A stretch of 64,000 bases of DNA from Candidatus Cloacimonadales bacterium (GCA_963662275.1 OY759316.1:2048001-2112000); one strand, 5' to 3'. Positions 1-64,000 are shown, numbered from the stretch's first letter. Translations and numbers: made by a program. The notes: generated by a model not told the origin, from the sequence alone.

Positions 1-813
1 CAAATGCACGTATACCATGGTCGCTCTAAGACTTTCGTGCCCGAGCAAGTCTTTGATGATGATGATACTGACACCTGCTTCCAATAAATGTGTGGCATAA
101 GAATGTCTGAGTGTATGACAGGTTACATGCTTAGGGATGCGTGTCTCCTTTAAGGCTGACTTCAGAGCTGACCGAAGAGTTTGGACAGAAATCTGGTTCG
201 AGGTTGTCATTCTGTTAATATCAGCCTGTCTGGTGCTTCTGCTCGGGAATAAAAGCTGTCTGTTCTGATGGGTTTTCCAATATTCCCGGAGTTCCTGATA
301 CAATTTTTCAGGCAGAGGTATTGACCTGTCTTTGTTGCCTTTGGATTGCCTTACCGTGATGGTCATCAATTCCCGGTTGATATCGGCTATTTTAATCTTG
401 ACTGCTTCCGAAATCCTTAATCCGCATTGATAGGTAAGAGTCAGTAAGAGTCGATAATCATAAGTATGAATGCGGGAGATAAGCATTCTAACTTCGTCTG
501 TGGTCAGAATCACAGGAAGTTTGTGCTCAATCTTTGCCTTAAAAAAGGTAAAATCCTCTTGCCTGAAACCAACAACATGGATGAAAAAAAATCTGATGCC
601 ATAATAGGCTGATTTTAAACTCTGAGGACTATAATTCTTGACGTTATGCAGGTAGACAAAATATGTTCTTACCTGTTCAATAGATAGTGTGCCGGGGTCT
701 TGACCATAATATGATGCTAAAGAAGTGACTTGTCTGATGTAATTGTATTTTGTCTCTCGGGACACGCCTCGAAGATCAAGGCACTCTAAAAAGCGAACTT
801 CGTATGATTCCAT
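1..813 (-). CDS. Tyrosine recombinase/integrase, 3' end outside window
   Basis: Reverse complement of 61578-62390; ATG at 813 with GGAGG RBS. Confidence 0.92.
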   Translation of the reverse strand, partial: MESYEVRFLECLDLRGVSRETKYNYIRQVTSLASYYGQDPGTLSIEQVRTYFVYLHNVKNYSPQSLKSAYYGIRFFFIHVVGFRQEDFTFFKAKIEHKLPVILTTDEVRMLISRIHTYDYRLLLTLTYQCGLRISEAVKIKIADINRELMTITVRQSKGNKDRSIPLPEKLYQELREYWKTHQNRQLLFPSRSTRQADINRMTTSNQISVQTLRSALKSALKETRIPKHVTCHTLRHSYATHLLEAGVSIIIIKDLLGHESLRATMVYVHL

Positions 814-940
814 ACTTACCTCCAGTTAATTTTGGGGGTAAGTATGCTTTTAGTGAGGGTTCAGTATATCAATAGTTTAAATGCATGAAACACGAGTTTA
901 CTGCGAACGGTACTGCTGCTTGCAGCTTCGTTCAACAAGA
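1..940 (-). mobile_element. Partial copy (cut by window edge) of tyrosine recombinase + IS91-family transposase element, inverted relative to the copy at 61454-63906
   Basis: 1-940 is the colinear reverse complement of 61451-62390 (coordinates sum to 62391 at both ends, so no net indel; no mismatch seen by eye). Identity stops after TTCAACAAGA at 940. Confidence 0.93.
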
Positions 941-1552
941 ATTTCTTTTAGATTAGATATTCTACTTGCTTTTTTAGGGATTTTATTATCATTATTTAGT
1001 ATCGGATTTTCTTTATTTAATCGTGGTGAACAGTTGAAAGAAAAAAAGAGAGTCGATCAATTAACTTTCTTATCGATGGTTACTCCTGATGAAAGAAAAT
1101 GTTTTATTGATTATGCCAGACTTGTAAATATCCCAGAAAGTTCTGTCATGGATATGGCTAGCTCGCTAACTCAAGGCGTAAATAGATTCAATCGAGGCGA
1201 AATAACTAATTCATTGAGTTACTTTCAATATGCAATAAATTCATTACCGGATTATCCAACAGGATACTTAGCTGAAGCATACGTTTTCGAAAAGCTAAAA
1301 AATCAAGATAGTTTGATTTGCTATCTTCAAAAAGCTATTGAAAAAGCTGAGTCGCTTAGACCAGATTTGAAAGTGATATTTATTGGTGAAGTTAATACAT
1401 TTATTGTGAATGATAAAGAGATTTCTGATCCTCTACCAATTGGCACTTCTGCATGGAATATTGATAGTTTTATCTATCACTGTAAGAAAAAGCTTGAAAT
1501 CTATAATATTAATGGATGCGAGAAGAAAAAAACTATTACAAACACTGAATAA
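881..1552 (+). CDS. Membrane-anchored TPR-like protein; first 20 codons come from the mobile element end, so probably an interrupted or fused gene
   Basis: Hydrophobic helix ILLAFLGILLSLFSIGFSL and TPR-like YFQYAINSLPDYPTGYLAEAYVF. The leader MHETRVYCERYCCLQLRSTR also starts ORF 61274-61510. Confidence 0.55.
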   Translation: MHETRVYCERYCCLQLRSTRISFRLDILLAFLGILLSLFSIGFSLFNRGEQLKEKKRVDQLTFLSMVTPDERKCFIDYARLVNIPESSVMDMASSLTQGVNRFNRGEITNSLSYFQYAINSLPDYPTGYLAEAYVFEKLKNQDSLICYLQKAIEKAESLRPDLKVIFIGEVNTFIVNDKEISDPLPIGTSAWNIDSFIYHCKKKLEIYNINGCEKKKTITNTE

Positions 1553-1776
1553 ACATAATGACAATCTATTAATCATGGTTATATGAAGCAGGTATTTAAC
1601 AGGATGATTATGGAATCATATGTCACAAATAGCATCTAGGATTGATAAACTAAATATTTTGTGAGTGAGTTCGAAAATAGCTCAATTTTATTCATACTTC
1701 CAACAATTCAGTTGACATAATTTCCATACTTTGCGAATTAATAAAATAATGTATTATTATGTAAAGGGGGAAACCT

Positions 1777-1980
1777 ATGCCTAGAATGACTGTTGACCCT
1801 AATTATTGTAAAGGGTGCGGTCTTTGTATTGAAGCATGTCCGAAGAAGATCATACGTTTTTCGGAAGAGATCAATAGCAAAGGCTATCATTACGCTGAAT
1901 GTTTTAACCAGGATGCCTGCATCGCCTGCAAGATGTGTTACATGACTTGCCCTGATGTGGCAATTACCGTGGAAAAGTAG
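1777..1980 (+). CDS. 2x[4Fe-4S] ferredoxin, delta subunit of 2-oxoacid:ferredoxin oxidoreductase
   Basis: Two CxxCxxCxxxCP motifs; operon context. Confidence 0.9.
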   Translation: MPRMTVDPNYCKGCGLCIEACPKKIIRFSEEINSKGYHYAECFNQDACIACKMCYMTCPDVAITVEK

Positions 1981-1988
1981 GAGGGATT

Positions 1989-3068
1989 ATGGCAAAAGTA
2001 TTAATGAAAGGAAATGAAGCAGTAGCAGAAGCCGCCATCCGTGCCGGTTGTCGTTTATATTTTGCATATCCCATCACTCCTCAAAGTGAACTAATTGAGT
2101 ATATGGCAAAAAAAATGCCACTCGTGAATGGAACATTCCTTCAAGCTGAAAGCGAAGTCGCTGCCATCAATATGGTATACGGCGCTGCCGGTTGCGGTAG
2201 ACGGGTCATGACTTCTTCCTCATCACCTGGAATCTCTCTCAAAATGGAAGGCTTATCTTATATTGCCGGTTCCATGCTTCCTGCTGTAGTCGTAAATGTA
2301 CAGCGTGGCGGTCCGGGTCTTGGTGATATTCAACCTGCCCAAGCTGATTACTTCCAAGCCACGAAAGGTGGGGGACATGGTGATTATCGTCTTATTGTCC
2401 TGGCACCCAGTTCAGTGCAGGAATTCGCTGATATGGCTGGAGAAGCTTTTGACCTGGCTGACAAATACCGCAATCCCGTCATGATTCTTGCCGATGGTAT
2501 GTTGGGTCAGATGATGGAACCTGTCGAATTTAAAGAGAATAAACCTGCTGAAGAACTACGTGATATCGAACATAAGCACGAATCCTGGTGTATAACAACA
2601 AATGAAGATGGTCCAAAACGACATCATCATGAGATCAATTCGTTGGAAATCGATCCCAAAGTGTTGGAAAAGCACGTCATTGAATTAGGTCAAAAGTATG
2701 ATTATATCACTAAACATGAAACACGCCATGAAGCATACAATGTATCAGATGATAATGAAATTCTTTGCGTTGCTTTCGGGACTGCCTCACGTATTGTGAA
2801 ATCTGCTGTGAATGATCTAAAAGATGAAGGTAAGAGCATTGGACTGATTCGTCCCATCACTTGTTGGCCTTATCCTTATGAAGCTGTGAAACAAGCGATT
2901 GGAAGTAAAGTAAAAAAAGTCCTCGTCTTCGAACTAAACCTCGGTCAAATGCTGGATGACGTCAAAATCGCCGTTGAAGGCAAAGTCCCTGTTGATTTTT
3001 ATGGAAAGGTAGGCGGTATCGTCTTCACACCGGATGAAATCAAACGTAAGATCGAAGAAAGTTTGTAG
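1989..3068 (+). CDS. vorB: 2-oxoacid (3-methyl-2-oxobutanoate-type):ferredoxin oxidoreductase alpha subunit
   Basis: GNEAVA, AYPITPQSE, QAESE, TSSSSPG, QRGGPG motifs. Confidence 0.88.
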   Translation: MAKVLMKGNEAVAEAAIRAGCRLYFAYPITPQSELIEYMAKKMPLVNGTFLQAESEVAAINMVYGAAGCGRRVMTSSSSPGISLKMEGLSYIAGSMLPAVVVNVQRGGPGLGDIQPAQADYFQATKGGGHGDYRLIVLAPSSVQEFADMAGEAFDLADKYRNPVMILADGMLGQMMEPVEFKENKPAEELRDIEHKHESWCITTNEDGPKRHHHEINSLEIDPKVLEKHVIELGQKYDYITKHETRHEAYNVSDDNEILCVAFGTASRIVKSAVNDLKDEGKSIGLIRPITCWPYPYEAVKQAIGSKVKKVLVFELNLGQMLDDVKIAVEGKVPVDFYGKVGGIVFTPDEIKRKIEESL

Positions 3069-3074
3069 GAGGAC

Positions 3075-3833
3075 ATGATGGAAGTTATTGCAAAAAGACC
3101 TGAATCACTAAGAGACGTTCAATTCACATATTGCCCGGGCTGCCTGCATGGTGTTGCCCATAGACTGATTGCAGAAGCTATAGATGAAATGGGCTTGCGG
3201 AATGTTATGATGGGTGTTGCACCCGTAGGATGTTCTGTATTTGCTTATAAATTCTTCGATTTTGATATGGCGCAAGCTGCTCATGGTCGTGCTCCGGCAG
3301 TTGCCACTGGAATGAAGAGAGCCAGACCGGATATGCATGTTTTTACTTACCAGGGTGACGGCGATTTGGCTGCAATTGGTACTGCTGAAATTGTACATGC
3401 TGCTAATCGTGGCGAACATATCAGTGTTTTCTTCGTTAACAATGCGATCTATGGTATGACGGGCGGTCAAATGGCACCGACTACATTACCAAATATGAAA
3501 ACAACCACTTCACCTTATGGCAGGAATGTGGAAGATGTTGGTTATCCTATTCGTGCTGCTGAATTATTGTCATCCCTTGTGGCTCCATATTATATCGAAA
3601 GAGTATCCTTGTTATCCCCTGGTGATATCATTAAAGCTAAGAAAGCTGTAGCTAAAGCGATTAGATACAACAAGGAAGAACGTGGATTTACTTTTGTCGA
3701 ATTCATATCAACTTGCCCAACCAATTGGGGTATTGATCCTATCAAATCAAGAGAATGGGCAAAAGAAAATATGCTTCCGTACTTCAAAATTGGCTGTTTA
3801 GTAGATAAGGGAAATACGGAGGAAGTAAAATGA
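3075..3833 (+). CDS. 2-oxoacid:ferredoxin oxidoreductase beta (TPP-binding) subunit
   Basis: YCPGC, HGRA, GDGD...NN, YGMTGGQ motifs. Confidence 0.9.
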   Translation: MMEVIAKRPESLRDVQFTYCPGCLHGVAHRLIAEAIDEMGLRNVMMGVAPVGCSVFAYKFFDFDMAQAAHGRAPAVATGMKRARPDMHVFTYQGDGDLAAIGTAEIVHAANRGEHISVFFVNNAIYGMTGGQMAPTTLPNMKTTTSPYGRNVEDVGYPIRAAELLSSLVAPYYIERVSLLSPGDIIKAKKAVAKAIRYNKEERGFTFVEFISTCPTNWGIDPIKSREWAKENMLPYFKIGCLVDKGNTEEVK

Positions 3834-20888: not shown

Positions 20889-21001
20889 TGTATCATAACT
20901 TTGAAAGTTGTTGTGGGGTTGGGTTTGAAACCCTACAACTCTTCAAGAGACCCCGAGGTTATAAACCATCGGGGAAAACAAGTTACAAACTTATGCAACA
21001 A
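20889..21001 (+). repeat. ~115-bp dispersed repeat family B, copy 1 (others: 28650-28768 and split copy 61434-61457 + 63903-64000)
   Basis: Shared TGTATCATA...CAACTC...AGAC...GTTA(C/T)AAAC...AACAAG...CTTATGCAACAA. Confidence 0.78.
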
Positions 21002-28649: not shown

Positions 28650-28768
28650 CAATTGTATCATAGCTTTGTAAGCTTTTATGTTGTTGAGATTGCATACCTA
28701 CAACTCCTGAAGCAGACTCCTAAAGTTACAAACTTCAGGATGTAACAAGATGCAATCTTATGCAACAA
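28650..28768 (+). repeat. Dispersed repeat family B, copy 2 (intact)
   Basis: Aligns with 20889-21001 and with both flanks of the right-hand mobile element. Confidence 0.8.
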
Positions 28769-60998: not shown

Positions 60999-61577
60999 GA
61001 TAAACCTCTCAACCTTATTTATTGAATGTAATTTTCTTTGGCAAGGAAAAAGTCAGTGAATTAAGAATTAACAATTCGACTTCGCTCAATGAGAAATTAA
61101 AAAGTTAAGAATTATCAGAAAGAGATGTGCAGAATTTAAGATTTAAGATTTAAGATTGAAGATTGAAAAGATTGGAAGAGCATAACTAAGGGAACGCCGA
61201 ATTGCTTTCGGTGGTTGTTGCATTGTTTGCAACGTCTTCTTTTTCATATTACTTTAGACTGCATGTTCATTTCCTATGGCTTAGTTCTGCAGTTATTTGT
61301 GGAACTATGTCTTATCGATTTCCATTTAAAAATGCATAGCCGTTTCAAAACAGCGTTCCGAGATTGCAACACGGTTTGTAACGCGTTATTCATAAGGTGT
61401 ACCGCTATATTTATATAGCATCGTGTCTGGTTCTGTGACATAAGATTGTATCTTGTTGAACGAAGCTGCAAGCAGCAGTACCGTTCGCAGTAAACTCGTG
61501 TTTCATGCATTTAAACTATTGATATACTGAACCCTCACTAAAAGCATACTTACCCCCAAAATTAACTGGAGGTAAGT

Positions 61578-62450
61578 ATGGAATCATACGAAGTTCGCTT
61601 TTTAGAGTGCCTTGATCTTCGAGGCGTGTCCCGAGAGACAAAATACAATTACATCAGACAAGTCACTTCTTTAGCATCATATTATGGTCAAGACCCCGGC
61701 ACACTATCTATTGAACAGGTAAGAACATATTTTGTCTACCTGCATAACGTCAAGAATTATAGTCCTCAGAGTTTAAAATCAGCCTATTATGGCATCAGAT
61801 TTTTTTTCATCCATGTTGTTGGTTTCAGGCAAGAGGATTTTACCTTTTTTAAGGCAAAGATTGAGCACAAACTTCCTGTGATTCTGACCACAGACGAAGT
61901 TAGAATGCTTATCTCCCGCATTCATACTTATGATTATCGACTCTTACTGACTCTTACCTATCAATGCGGATTAAGGATTTCGGAAGCAGTCAAGATTAAA
62001 ATAGCCGATATCAACCGGGAATTGATGACCATCACGGTAAGGCAATCCAAAGGCAACAAAGACAGGTCAATACCTCTGCCTGAAAAATTGTATCAGGAAC
62101 TCCGGGAATATTGGAAAACCCATCAGAACAGACAGCTTTTATTCCCGAGCAGAAGCACCAGACAGGCTGATATTAACAGAATGACAACCTCGAACCAGAT
62201 TTCTGTCCAAACTCTTCGGTCAGCTCTGAAGTCAGCCTTAAAGGAGACACGCATCCCTAAGCATGTAACCTGTCATACACTCAGACATTCTTATGCCACA
62301 CATTTATTGGAAGCAGGTGTCAGTATCATCATCATCAAAGACTTGCTCGGGCACGAAAGTCTTAGAGCGACCATGGTATACGTGCATTTGACTAACGTTT
62401 CCCGAGAGCAGTCATGTAAAATCATCAATGAACTGATGAATAAGATGTAA
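61578..62450 (+). CDS. Tyrosine recombinase with N-terminal SAM-like domain
   Basis: GLRISE, SKGNK, HTLRHSYATH, LLGH, TMVY catalytic residues. Confidence 0.95.
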   Translation: MESYEVRFLECLDLRGVSRETKYNYIRQVTSLASYYGQDPGTLSIEQVRTYFVYLHNVKNYSPQSLKSAYYGIRFFFIHVVGFRQEDFTFFKAKIEHKLPVILTTDEVRMLISRIHTYDYRLLLTLTYQCGLRISEAVKIKIADINRELMTITVRQSKGNKDRSIPLPEKLYQELREYWKTHQNRQLLFPSRSTRQADINRMTTSNQISVQTLRSALKSALKETRIPKHVTCHTLRHSYATHLLEAGVSIIIIKDLLGHESLRATMVYVHLTNVSREQSCKIINELMNKM

Positions 62451-63593
62451 ATGGATTTTAGCAGGATTCTCAAAAACAACCTGTCCGAGTATCTGGAAAA
62501 ATATGGAAACCAGTCACCGGAAAGCCATTTAAGAGCGATCAGAGATATTCTCCTTTGCCGGACACCTGAACTGGGCGGAGAAGTCTATTTATGCCAGGAA
62601 TGTGCGGAACTGCATTATTCCTATCATTCCTGCAAAAACCGTCACTGCCCGAAGTGTGGCCGTAATGATTCAGCGAAATGGCTGGAAAAGCAGCTTGCCA
62701 AACTGCTGCCGGTTAAGTACTTCATGGTAACTTTCACCATACCCCGGGAACTGCACAAAACATGCCTGTCAAATCAGAAACTGCTTTATGATCTTCAGTT
62801 CAAAGCATCATCTGAAGCCTTAAAGACATTGCTTTCAGATCCCAAATATGCCGGTGGCGTTTCAGGCTTTACCGGGGTACTTCATACCTGGACAAGGCAG
62901 CTTGAATATCATCCTCATATTCATTATATAGTCCCCGGCGGAGCTTGGAATAAAGAACGAAAGGAATGGCAAAAAGCAGGCAATAAGTTCCTGATTCCGG
63001 TCAAAGCTCTTTCGGTGATTTACCGGGCAAAATTCCGTGATTTGCTTCGACTGGAAAATCAGCATCTGTTTGGTCGGATATCCCCGCTAGTCTGGCAGCA
63101 AAAAGAGTTTGTCACAGACTCCCGACCCGTCGGAAAAGGTCGGGAGGCTCTGACTTATTTGGCCAATTATGTGTATCGGACCGCCATCACCAACAATCGC
63201 ATCCTTTGGGAAAAGGACGGGCTGGTAACCTTTAAATACAAGCCGGCAGGTTCAGCTAAATTCGCCTTTAAAAGCGTCGACTCCGTGGAGTTTATCAATA
63301 AGTTCCTGATGCATGTTCTGCCGCAGGGATTTCAGAAAATCAGATACTACGGATTTCTCAGTCCGGCGGCAAAATCTGTCTGGGAGATGGTCAACAGCTT
63401 TTTCCCAGCAAAGTCCGATTCTAATGACAAGAATCAGACAGCTAAAACTTTTGTAATTCCCAAATTTGAAAAAGACCTCTGCCCTAATTGCAAATCAAAG
63501 ATGACACAGCATGCTTCAATTACCGGAAAACCAAGATCACCGCCTTGGTCGCTGTTGTTTTTGGCAAATTGCTTTGATGGCGGTAAACTGTAA
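62451..63593 (+). CDS. IS91-family Y2 HUH transposase with N-terminal zinc-binding domain
   Basis: SCKNRHCPKC, HTW...YHPHIH (HUH), YLANY (YxxxY), HVLPQGFQKIRYYG. Confidence 0.93.
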   Translation: MDFSRILKNNLSEYLEKYGNQSPESHLRAIRDILLCRTPELGGEVYLCQECAELHYSYHSCKNRHCPKCGRNDSAKWLEKQLAKLLPVKYFMVTFTIPRELHKTCLSNQKLLYDLQFKASSEALKTLLSDPKYAGGVSGFTGVLHTWTRQLEYHPHIHYIVPGGAWNKERKEWQKAGNKFLIPVKALSVIYRAKFRDLLRLENQHLFGRISPLVWQQKEFVTDSRPVGKGREALTYLANYVYRTAITNNRILWEKDGLVTFKYKPAGSAKFAFKSVDSVEFINKFLMHVLPQGFQKIRYYGFLSPAAKSVWEMVNSFFPAKSDSNDKNQTAKTFVIPKFEKDLCPNCKSKMTQHASITGKPRSPPWSLLFLANCFDGGKL

Positions 63594-64000
63594 GTTAATT
63601 TTACCGACGGGATTGTCTTGCCTAAATTATAGAAACAACCGAAATATTACAGGCAATTTGCTAAAATACTTGAAAACAATATCAGCCCATACACAAAAAG
63701 TCTGATCTCAAAGTGATTTGATAACTTCTGAAAAGAAAATCATCTCTTCCATTGGTAAAAGACTCTGCTAAAATTGTAAAAATCCAATTCAACCCAAGAA
63801 ATCTTCAAAAAGCAATTTCCAAATACATATTCAAAATCACCCTGCTACTTGAGCTTGTTCAACAGCATATCCAATCATGCCTATGATGGGAAATGCTTAT
63901 TATGTTATATCCTTAAGTTTGCAACTTGAGGGTCTTTTTGTCAGAGTTGAATGGTTTCAAACCCAACAACATAACAATTCACAAAATTATGGTTCGATTG

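Follow-up and report, generated by a model that had tools for sequence, protein, structure and literature searches.

A stretch of 64,000 nucleotides from a Candidatus Cloacimonadales bacterium (GCA_963662275.1 OY759316.1:2048001-2112000), hereafter the window, carries at 61455-63903 an insert that, judged by its sequence, is an insertion sequence of the IS91 family and belongs to the subgroup with a tyrosine recombinase gene upstream of the transposase gene. The copy family is new as a sequence; the subgroup is already catalogued. The ends of the element and its target share a TGTT, which comparison of copies and relatives indicates is no duplication made upon insertion: the left GTT is owned by the element, as part of a terminal inverted repeat, and the right GTTA is owned by the target. 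By analogy with IS91, the element probably moves by HUH rolling-circle transposition, with the recombinase as an accessory.

The recombinase gene (61578-62450, + strand; 290 aa) encodes a protein with the Pfam domains PF00589 and PF13495, and the transposase gene (62451-63593, + strand; 380 aa) one with PF04986 and PF14319. Both are read from the same strand and without a gap, as the recombinase stop codon TAA (62448-62450) abuts the transposase ATG (62451). The transposase scored 363 bits against the NCBIfam IS91 model NF033538 (cut-off 125). Its identity to the IS1294 transposase is only ~26%; its HPHIH (residues 154-158) aligns with HPHVH of IS1294, and its YLANY (236-240) with YLGRY. The HUH and YxxxY motifs and the domains PF14319 and PF04986 correspond to the Y2 HUH transposase with an N-terminal zinc-binding domain by which IS91 elements are recognized. 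The recombinase has a complete catalytic set (R133, K158, H233, R236, H259, and Y268), and these six residues are invariant across 26 aligned recombinases, i.e., the query and 25 homologues. Its best NCBIfam match was the integron integrase TIGR02249, with 180 bits in two stretches and under the cut-off of 265, and its closest solved relative is VchIntIA/IntI4 (2a3v; E 1e-31). In the 2a3v alignment, the IntI-specific helical insertion is not present in the recombinase, which has 10 residues (178-188) where IntI4 has 42 (180-222). A classification paper describes IS91-associated recombinases as the closest homologues of IntI, without the IntI-specific insertion (10.1101/542381). Among 8000 candidates scored, 5849 recombinase homologues reached E ≤ 1e-20; the nearest, from one small metagenome cluster, are 96% identical, and the next at most 59%. 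Contigs of 2.4-2.7 kb, close to the element in length, carry many of the homologous recombinases, as multi-copy repeats assembling alone would give.

In the 4.38-Mb genome (one contig), BLAST found 13 copies of the element with 99.8-100% identity, and the 290-aa and 380-aa proteins are identical in all of them, so the element has been active recently. The copies are scattered singly over 0.46-3.04 Mb, with no tandem copy among the 13. Cumulative GC skew, from which their orientation to replication was read, puts the transposase-sense strand on the lagging side in eight copies and on the leading side in five, which amounts to no bias, the skew signal being weak. In contigs from public runs (four of five runs holding the stretch), the depth of the element contig was ~14x that of its flanks, consistent with 13 copies. 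No circle junction was present in the assembled contigs of these four runs, and contigs cannot reveal rare forms. The sole joint in the public contigs that seemed to skip the element (758 to 3245, with 35 other letters between) was rejected as a paralogous repeat copy and not the empty site of the present locus. Tandem Repeats Finder, applied to the window, gave nothing relevant.

A sequence-only reading of the window had delimited an insert of ~2449 bp that starts with GTTGAAC and ends with GTTCAAC, a hairpin, TATTAT, and GTT, and had proposed that all genomic copies be aligned. The insert length is 2449 bp in the register GTTGAAC...TATTAT, and both ends were confirmed at these coordinates and across the copies. 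The GTTGAAC start (61455-61461) is found in 13/13 copies and is preceded by a T in 12 of them. At the right end, GTTCAAC (63857-63863) is followed by the hairpin AGCATATCCAATCAT / GCCT / ATGATGGGAAATGCT (63864-63897), TATTAT (63898-63903), and GTTA (63904-63907). GTTCAAC and GTTGAAC are exact reverse complements, as the complementary end boxes of that reading had implied. The left terminal inverted repeat (IRL; GTTGAACGAAGCT, 61455-61467, + strand) is complementary, with one bulged base, to the inner box of the right inverted repeat (IRR; AGCTTGTTCAAC, 63852-63863, + strand), which lies 40 nt inside the right end and pairs with IRL in the folded circle junction. Next to IRL, a left subterminal palindrome GCTGC-AA-GCAGC occupies 61465-61476 (+ strand), with a similar palindrome in the corresponding position of IS1294. 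The right subterminal hairpin (+ strand) has 15-nt arms with two mismatches and a GCCT loop. The spacer TATTAT (+ strand), i.e., the last six bases of the element, is unpaired and forms a one-sided bulge in the fold.

TATTAT-GTTA stands directly at the right end in 12 of the 13 copies. The 13th (copy 7), whose left part covers window positions 1-936 on the - strand and which extends beyond the window start, carries an IS21-family element within the last bases of its right end, with TATT on both sides; the end beyond it reads TATTATGTTA. With the end of copy 7 restored past this insertion, all 13 copies keep the hairpin, TATTAT, and the target-owned tetranucleotide GTTA (+ strand). The IS21-family element (genome C1:2043860-2046489, outside the window) has genes of 529 and 249 aa and six identical copies genome-wide, and its insertion is why copy 7 had seemed to be without a GTT end.

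The flanks of the present copy are two pieces of one ~113-nt repeat with four hairpin modules. The left flank (61434-61457) ends in ...ATCTTGTT, the right flank begins from 63903 with TGTTATATCC, and the other strand of the intact repeat at 28650-28768 gives ...ATCTTGTTACATCC, in which TGTT occurs once. The earlier proposal that the two flanks rebuild this intact repeat was borne out, and intact paralogues carry a single GTT. As a feature, the intact paralogue (28654-28766, + strand; ~113 nt, four hairpin modules) shows the form of the empty site. By flank comparison, the left piece of the interrupted repeat, with the hairpin AAGAT-TGT-ATCTT, lies at 61441-61454 (- strand). The right piece lies at 63904-63996 (- strand); its nhmmer match (genome 2111996-2111898, window 63898-63996, model positions 2-100) includes the element spacer 63898-63903, and only 63904-63996 is target. 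In total, nhmmer gave 38 matches of the repeat, spread over the genome and not arrayed (blastn-short gave 16 pieces only). The repeat, with copies in the window at 28654-28766 and 20889-20999, has inverted ends made of a hairpin plus GTTA and resembles a miniature inverted-repeat transposable element or a mosaic of repetitive extragenic palindromes. The repeat was also considered as an integron attC site and rejected: no complementary RYYYAAC/GTTRRRY pair was found by eye, and the copies are dispersed.

A fuzzy-pattern search revealed 16 intact target modules, 15 with a single GTT, one with ATT, and none with a doubled triplet. The intact modules read ATCTT-GTTA-N3-CCTGAAG with unchanged spacing to the next module, from which it follows that the right GTTA is owned by the target. 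Six of the 13 insertions (copies 0, 1, 3, 8, 10, and 12, judged by eye) touch the repeat family on at least one side, three of them also as nhmmer matches. Five of these insertions lie behind the hairpin AAGAT-TGT-ATCTT and one behind the related AGCTT-TGT-AAGCT at the other end of the repeat, and for both hairpin types they sit exactly between the hairpin stem and GTTA. Insertion-bearing modules read GTTA; 10 of the 16 intact modules read GTTT, and none of these has an insertion. This pattern indicates that the target GTTA is required. Given that the genome contains 10,609 TGTTA sites, the six insertions at the repeat mean that it is strongly preferred. The targets lie scattered over the genome as TGTTA sites, half of them at the base of a repeat hairpin, which is compatible with a preference for ...YAAC beside a hairpin foot when the DNA is single-stranded. 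Folding of the 24 nt ahead of each insertion gave ≤ -1 kcal/mol in 7/13 sites, compared to 26% of 3000 random TGTTA sites, a weak effect that is due to the repeat-borne sites.

Relatives of the recombinase were collected with a profile of 26 sequences, and 79 loci from species-representative genomes were fetched. In 29 of them, the recombinase is followed by an IS91 transposase on the same strand; these loci come from many phyla and include one archaeal metagenome-assembled genome. In three plasmid relatives (transposase at least 31% identical), the recombinase overlaps the transposase start by 4 nt; a plasmid relative with 29% identity is without this arrangement. Order and coupling of the genes are the same in IS91 members with an upstream gene of the phage-integrase type. 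ISShvi3 and ISWz1, which the literature searched treats as IS91-family elements, are of this kind in ISfinder. The gene pair is thus indeed known among IS91 relatives, as had been stated from the sequence, and one paper mentions IS91-family elements with a second open reading frame of the phage integrase family (PMC8496243). According to two others, ISShvi3 adjoins an attC site and a new cassette-like structure was formed (PMC9229058), and ISWz1, a relative of the element family, occurs in multidrug-resistance regions (PMC11322121). Two further papers mention IS91 only in passing (PMC9345347 and PMC3469429). The literature searched, which left ISfinder and TnPedia texts and older IS91 papers aside, yielded no description of the end anatomy or of what the recombinase does.

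Ends were readable in about a dozen of the 29 two-gene loci, and the rest, without a clear inverted repeat, were left out of the counts. The 12 lineages with readable ends comprise the present genome, L086, L001, L002, L008, L012, L021, L023, the L027 family, L105, L106, and L107. Their ends were read by eye, as an automatic inverted-repeat finder gave spurious repeats in 7/14 loci and was not used. The ends of L008, whose genome has a single copy, were read without comparison to a second copy, and of seven loci from a metagenome scan only one (L086) shows both ends. In all 12 lineages, the left copy of the inverted repeat is terminal and the right one lies further in. For 11 of them, minimum free energy (MFE) folds place a long hairpin 0-5 nt after the box, with arm sequences that differ between lineages, and the distance from this hairpin to the triplet is 4-10 nt. 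As the tetranucleotide behind the spacer, six lineages have GTTA, while GTTG, CTTA, GACn, and GTCA occur once each.

Three triplets, namely the one that opens IRL, the one that closes the inner box, and the one behind the spacer, correspond to one another in 8/12 lineages and occur there in three states: GTT, AAC, and GTT in the present genome (13 copies), L001, L008, L023, L106, and L107; CTT, AAG, and CTT in L086; and GAC, GTC, and GAC in the L027 family (9/9 copies with independently defined ends). This covariation implies that the target triplet is chosen to match the left triplet, with which the inner box can pair. It is also the reason to regard the left GTT as owned by the element, which in turn rules out an ordinary 3-bp target duplication. 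The sequence-only reading had called TGTT duplicated; this claim did not hold, in view of the covariation and of the spacing in the intact modules. At the left junction (TGTT, 61454-61457, + strand), T 61454 is the last target base and GTT (61455-61457) the first three bases of the element, and the junction position may fall anywhere within the shared TGTT. The idea that staggered cuts had made a 3-bp target-site duplication of GTT, with the element proper starting at GAAC, could draw on the GTT that stands on both sides of 13/13 copies and on IS1294, which by position starts at GAAC. We consider it extremely unlikely, since the left triplet tracks the inner box through GTT-AAC, CTT-AAG, and GAC-GTC, unlike a triplet derived from the target, and the IS91 family is described as making no duplications (PMC13181058).

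Several of the relatives show peculiarities at their ends. On the metagenome contig L086 (3444-3499), the last 28 nt of the right end, comprising part of the loop, the 3' arm, the spacer TATTAG, and CTT, are found twice in tandem, which may be the trace of an insertion beside a resident end or of a lost tandem copy. In L105, a Herpetosiphon plasmid, TACGTTA occurs twice at the right junction, ~335-350 nt past the transposase stop, and the left triplet ATT matches neither the inner box (..CAAA) nor the right GTT. The nine GAC-type copies (L092-L100) in genome G001 stand after a semi-conserved left flank (..TAA-ACCCTTGGC in 5/9), and two of them share the right flank; the GAC-type element of this genome also seems to prefer a repeated target. 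G001 carries at least two more diverged families of the element as well, with 70% and 66-67% identity.

Rules for the IS91 family were taken from a 2026 IS91 paper (PMC13181058). According to it, the family makes no target duplication, and a target tetranucleotide remains beside oriIS, namely CTTG for IS91, GTTC for IS801 and IS1294, and GTCC for IS1294b. Subterminal palindromes stand at oriIS and terIS alike, and terIS also has a cleavage tetranucleotide; insertion is confined to the bottom-strand circle, which in IS91 is inserted by TnpA without further help (PMC13181058). The same text describes orf121 of IS91, whose stop overlaps the tnpA start, as inhibiting TnpA and sharpening accurate terIS cutting (PMC13181058). 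The present element shares with IS91, IS801, and IS1294 the transposase family and motifs, the absence of a duplication, subterminal palindromes, and a target tetranucleotide at oriIS that resembles the one at terIS, as GTTG stands first and GTTA after. It differs from them in the tetranucleotides themselves, which are GTTG and GTTA (CAAC and TAAC on the bottom strand) instead of GTTC or CTTG. It has a coupled upstream gene like IS91; unlike orf121, however, this gene encodes a 290-aa tyrosine recombinase. By analogy, IRL would correspond to terIS and GTTG (CAAC on the bottom strand) to its cleavage tetranucleotide, and the right hairpin would be the oriIS palindrome. Palindromes are found at both subterminal positions, the left one being weak when folded alone (z -1.08; 27/200 shuffles equally good). 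The right hairpin folds at -8.4 kcal/mol (z -1.93; 6/200 shuffles equally good).

IS1294, which has no recombinase, served as a control. In four plasmids, read in transposase sense, its copies start with GAAC and a palindrome, and GAAC follows them. Exact tandem copies were found in two of the four plasmid loci, with one GAAC common to both copies; these are the E. coli and Klebsiella plasmid loci L081 and L083, in which the head-to-tail tandem has a period of 1688 bp and a single GAAC at the junction. At this natural tandem junction, the two ends also pair in the MFE fold, as they do in the present element. A difference concerns the layout: the inverted repeat of the present element lies at the extreme left and, on the right, inside the ori hairpin, whereas the pairing arms of IS1294 enclose the ter palindrome.

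Taken by analogy with IS91, rolling-circle transposition would proceed as follows. At the right end (oriIS), the Y2 HUH transposase would nick the bottom strand where the flanking TAAC meets ATAATA of the element, and rolling-circle replication would displace the nicked strand. At terIS on the left, a further cut behind GTTCAAC would free a single-stranded circle. The bottom strand indeed reads TAAC^ATAATA-hairpin on the ori side and GTTCAAC^ on the ter side. The circle would then be joined to a site that imitates its own nick site, TAAC^A on the bottom strand, which corresponds to TGTTA on the top strand. In this scheme, the left GTTG would be the element's own cleavage tetranucleotide and the right GTTA that of the target. 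The inner box (..AAC), which pairs with the left GTT in the folded circle, may guide both the terIS cut and the choice of target. The recombinase would be an accessory, e.g., for better termination or for resolving tandem copies. Rolling-circle transposition is supported by the architecture, which is the same as in members without a recombinase, by the intact transposase, by the insertion of IS91 circles by TnpA alone (PMC13181058), and by the tandems and the end-to-end pairing of the recombinase-free IS1294. The required GTTA, the left triplet owned by the element, and the very stable fold of the circle junction, described below, also count in its favor.

A guide of this kind has a parallel in the IS200/IS605 elements (e.g., IS608), in which an HUH enzyme acts on subterminal hairpins and a short guide pairs with the cleavage and target tetranucleotides. 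An IS608-type guide would explain the covariation of box, end, and target observed here. IS200/IS605 elements differ in that they encode a Y1 enzyme, move by single-stranded cut-and-paste without a rolling circle, and have no recombinase, while the present element combines a Y2 enzyme with a recombinase.

Several observations weigh against a mere accessory role of the recombinase and against the rolling-circle scheme. The recombinase active site is fully kept in the query and 25 homologues, although a mere regulator would need none, and all close relatives examined show the coupling of the two genes, which is old and stable. The recombinase is from the group closest to the integron integrases, enzymes that work on folded single strands, and the triplet covariation is equally predicted by a recombinase that swaps strands within the folded box. 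Furthermore, the bottom-strand target TAAC is neither of the published tetranucleotides GTTC and CTTG, the GAC family violates the published rule of a T at the second position, and four lineages (L002, L012, L021, and L105) show only partial triplet agreement. Lastly, the rolling-circle steps rest on analogy, with circle, nick, and intermediate not being among the observations. The position of the cuts does not help either: with the HUH enzyme nicking behind AAC and the recombinase cutting inside it (top strand G|TT), the two positions would be one base apart, inside four shared bases, and the products identical. As both cuts lie inside the same four bases, the sequence cannot by itself separate an HUH from a recombinase mechanism.

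As a 90-nt circle junction, the two ends fold at -23.0 (top strand) and -23.4 (bottom strand) kcal/mol, compared to -7.3 and -7.0 kcal/mol for shuffled sequences (standard deviation 2.3), with 0/300 shuffles equally good for each strand. In this fold, the two ends are connected by 19-20 bp, with the hairpin enclosed and the six spacer bases bulging out on one side; the hairpin begins right after the 5' box, with a gap of 0 here and 0-5 nt in relatives. As an alternative, the HUH enzyme might only make the single-stranded circle, whose junction would fold like attC (R box GTTCAAC/GTTGAAC, bulge, and second stem), and the IntI-like recombinase would join it to the GTT target at G|TT. We regard this as possible but unlikely. 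It fits the boxes, which are exact complements and match RYYYAAC/GTTRRRY, the consensus quoted in the sequence-only reading, and the strength of the junction fold, the design of which is kept in 11/12 elements. The order of genes followed by complementary boxes around an imperfect palindrome, the junction at GTT, and the recombinase group are all shared with integron cassettes, so activity on folded single strands is plausible. The 3' spacer has 6 nt, and spacers of attC sites are about 6 nt long. True attC sites are, in addition, laid out with L boxes, a two-sided unpaired spacer, and extrahelical bases. In the present fold, neither attC-type L boxes nor a two-sided spacer were seen, and only six nt, on the 3' side, are unpaired. 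Of the attC geometry that had been proposed, the boxes and the cassette-like order (genes, box, hairpin, spacer, GTT) therefore stand, and the L boxes and the two-sided spacer do not; the accompanying caveat that the L-box spacing is not canonical proved correct, as the fold is without L boxes and bulges on one side.

The kinship of the recombinase to VchIntIA and to the integron integrase model, the classification of IS91 recombinases as the closest IntI homologues (10.1101/542381), and the retention of all catalytic residues speak for strand exchange by the recombinase, as does the covariation of box, end, and target triplets, which strand swapping requires. ISShvi3 beside an attC site, with its cassette-like structure (PMC9229058), points the same way. 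On the other hand, the IntI insertion is missing (10 vs. 42 residues), and the score of 180 remains under 265. IS1294 follows the same junction rule and forms tandems without any recombinase, so the HUH enzyme suffices within the family. Both transposase tyrosines are kept, and TnpA of IS91 inserts the circle alone (PMC13181058). The 13 copies are dispersed, and neither a cassette array nor an attI platform was seen. Unlike integron cassettes, the element encodes its own HUH transposase, and its relatives use CTT or GAC in place of GTT; unlike integrons, it shows no layout of extrahelical bases. The earlier suggestion that the HUH enzyme makes the single strand and the recombinase integrates it finds backing in the anatomy of the ends and in a recombinase nearest to IntI, but the recombinase-free IS1294, the missing IntI insertion, and the one-sided bulge weigh against it.

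The same junction could serve a different purpose. The recombinase may be a resolution or excision enzyme at the box-hairpin-box junction that reduces tandems or joined replicons, as sometimes left by rolling-circle transposition, or excises circles, and takes no part in the choice of target. In favor of such a role are the right ends of two relatives, with 28 nt doubled in L086 and TACGTTA doubled in L105, the exact IS1294 tandems in two of four plasmid loci, and the gene at the same position in IS91, which improves accurate termination (PMC13181058). With the hairpin extruded, two inverted arms of 12-13 nt flank a 6-bp center. Inverted arms around a 6-bp center are also the layout of Xer-type core sites. 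However, this reading of a core site depends on an assumed extrusion of a cruciform, and with no tandem among the 13 copies there is no sign that resolution is needed. We consider such an enzyme quite unlikely, and rolling-circle transposition by the HUH enzyme with an accessory recombinase remains the reading that we favor.

CTX-type phages offer a parallel in logic to an attC-like fold acted upon by a recombinase. Their HUH rolling-circle protein makes single-stranded DNA that folds into a site for a tyrosine recombinase, for which the host XerCD is borrowed, and dif is targeted. The present element differs in that it has a recombinase of its own and dispersed TGTTA targets.

Regarding the wider meaning, the genome is a good test case, with 13 recently active copies, exact ends, and TGTTA as a defined target that in many cases adjoins a hairpin foot. 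The covariation of box, end, and target in a well-defined active element makes the question of mechanism directly testable, and a clear prediction is that altering the last three bases of the inner box would shift the cut end and the chosen target alike. A more far-reaching view, which we hold only tentatively and think rather unlikely, is that the recombinase-carrying IS91 clade consists of self-mobilizing cassette-like elements, in which an HUH-made circle would form an attC-like fold and the recombinase would exchange one strand with a target of the same triplet, this triplet being set by pairing with the inner box and able to evolve (GTT, CTT, GAC). If true, the clade would join integrons and CTX-type phages as a third case of a tyrosine recombinase acting on folded single-stranded DNA. 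The literature searched contained no paper on the task of the recombinase in this part of the IS91 family. Such a hybrid mechanism, should it be confirmed, would matter for how integrons arose; in that case, attC sites and integron integrases may have a common origin with recombinase-carrying IS91 elements.

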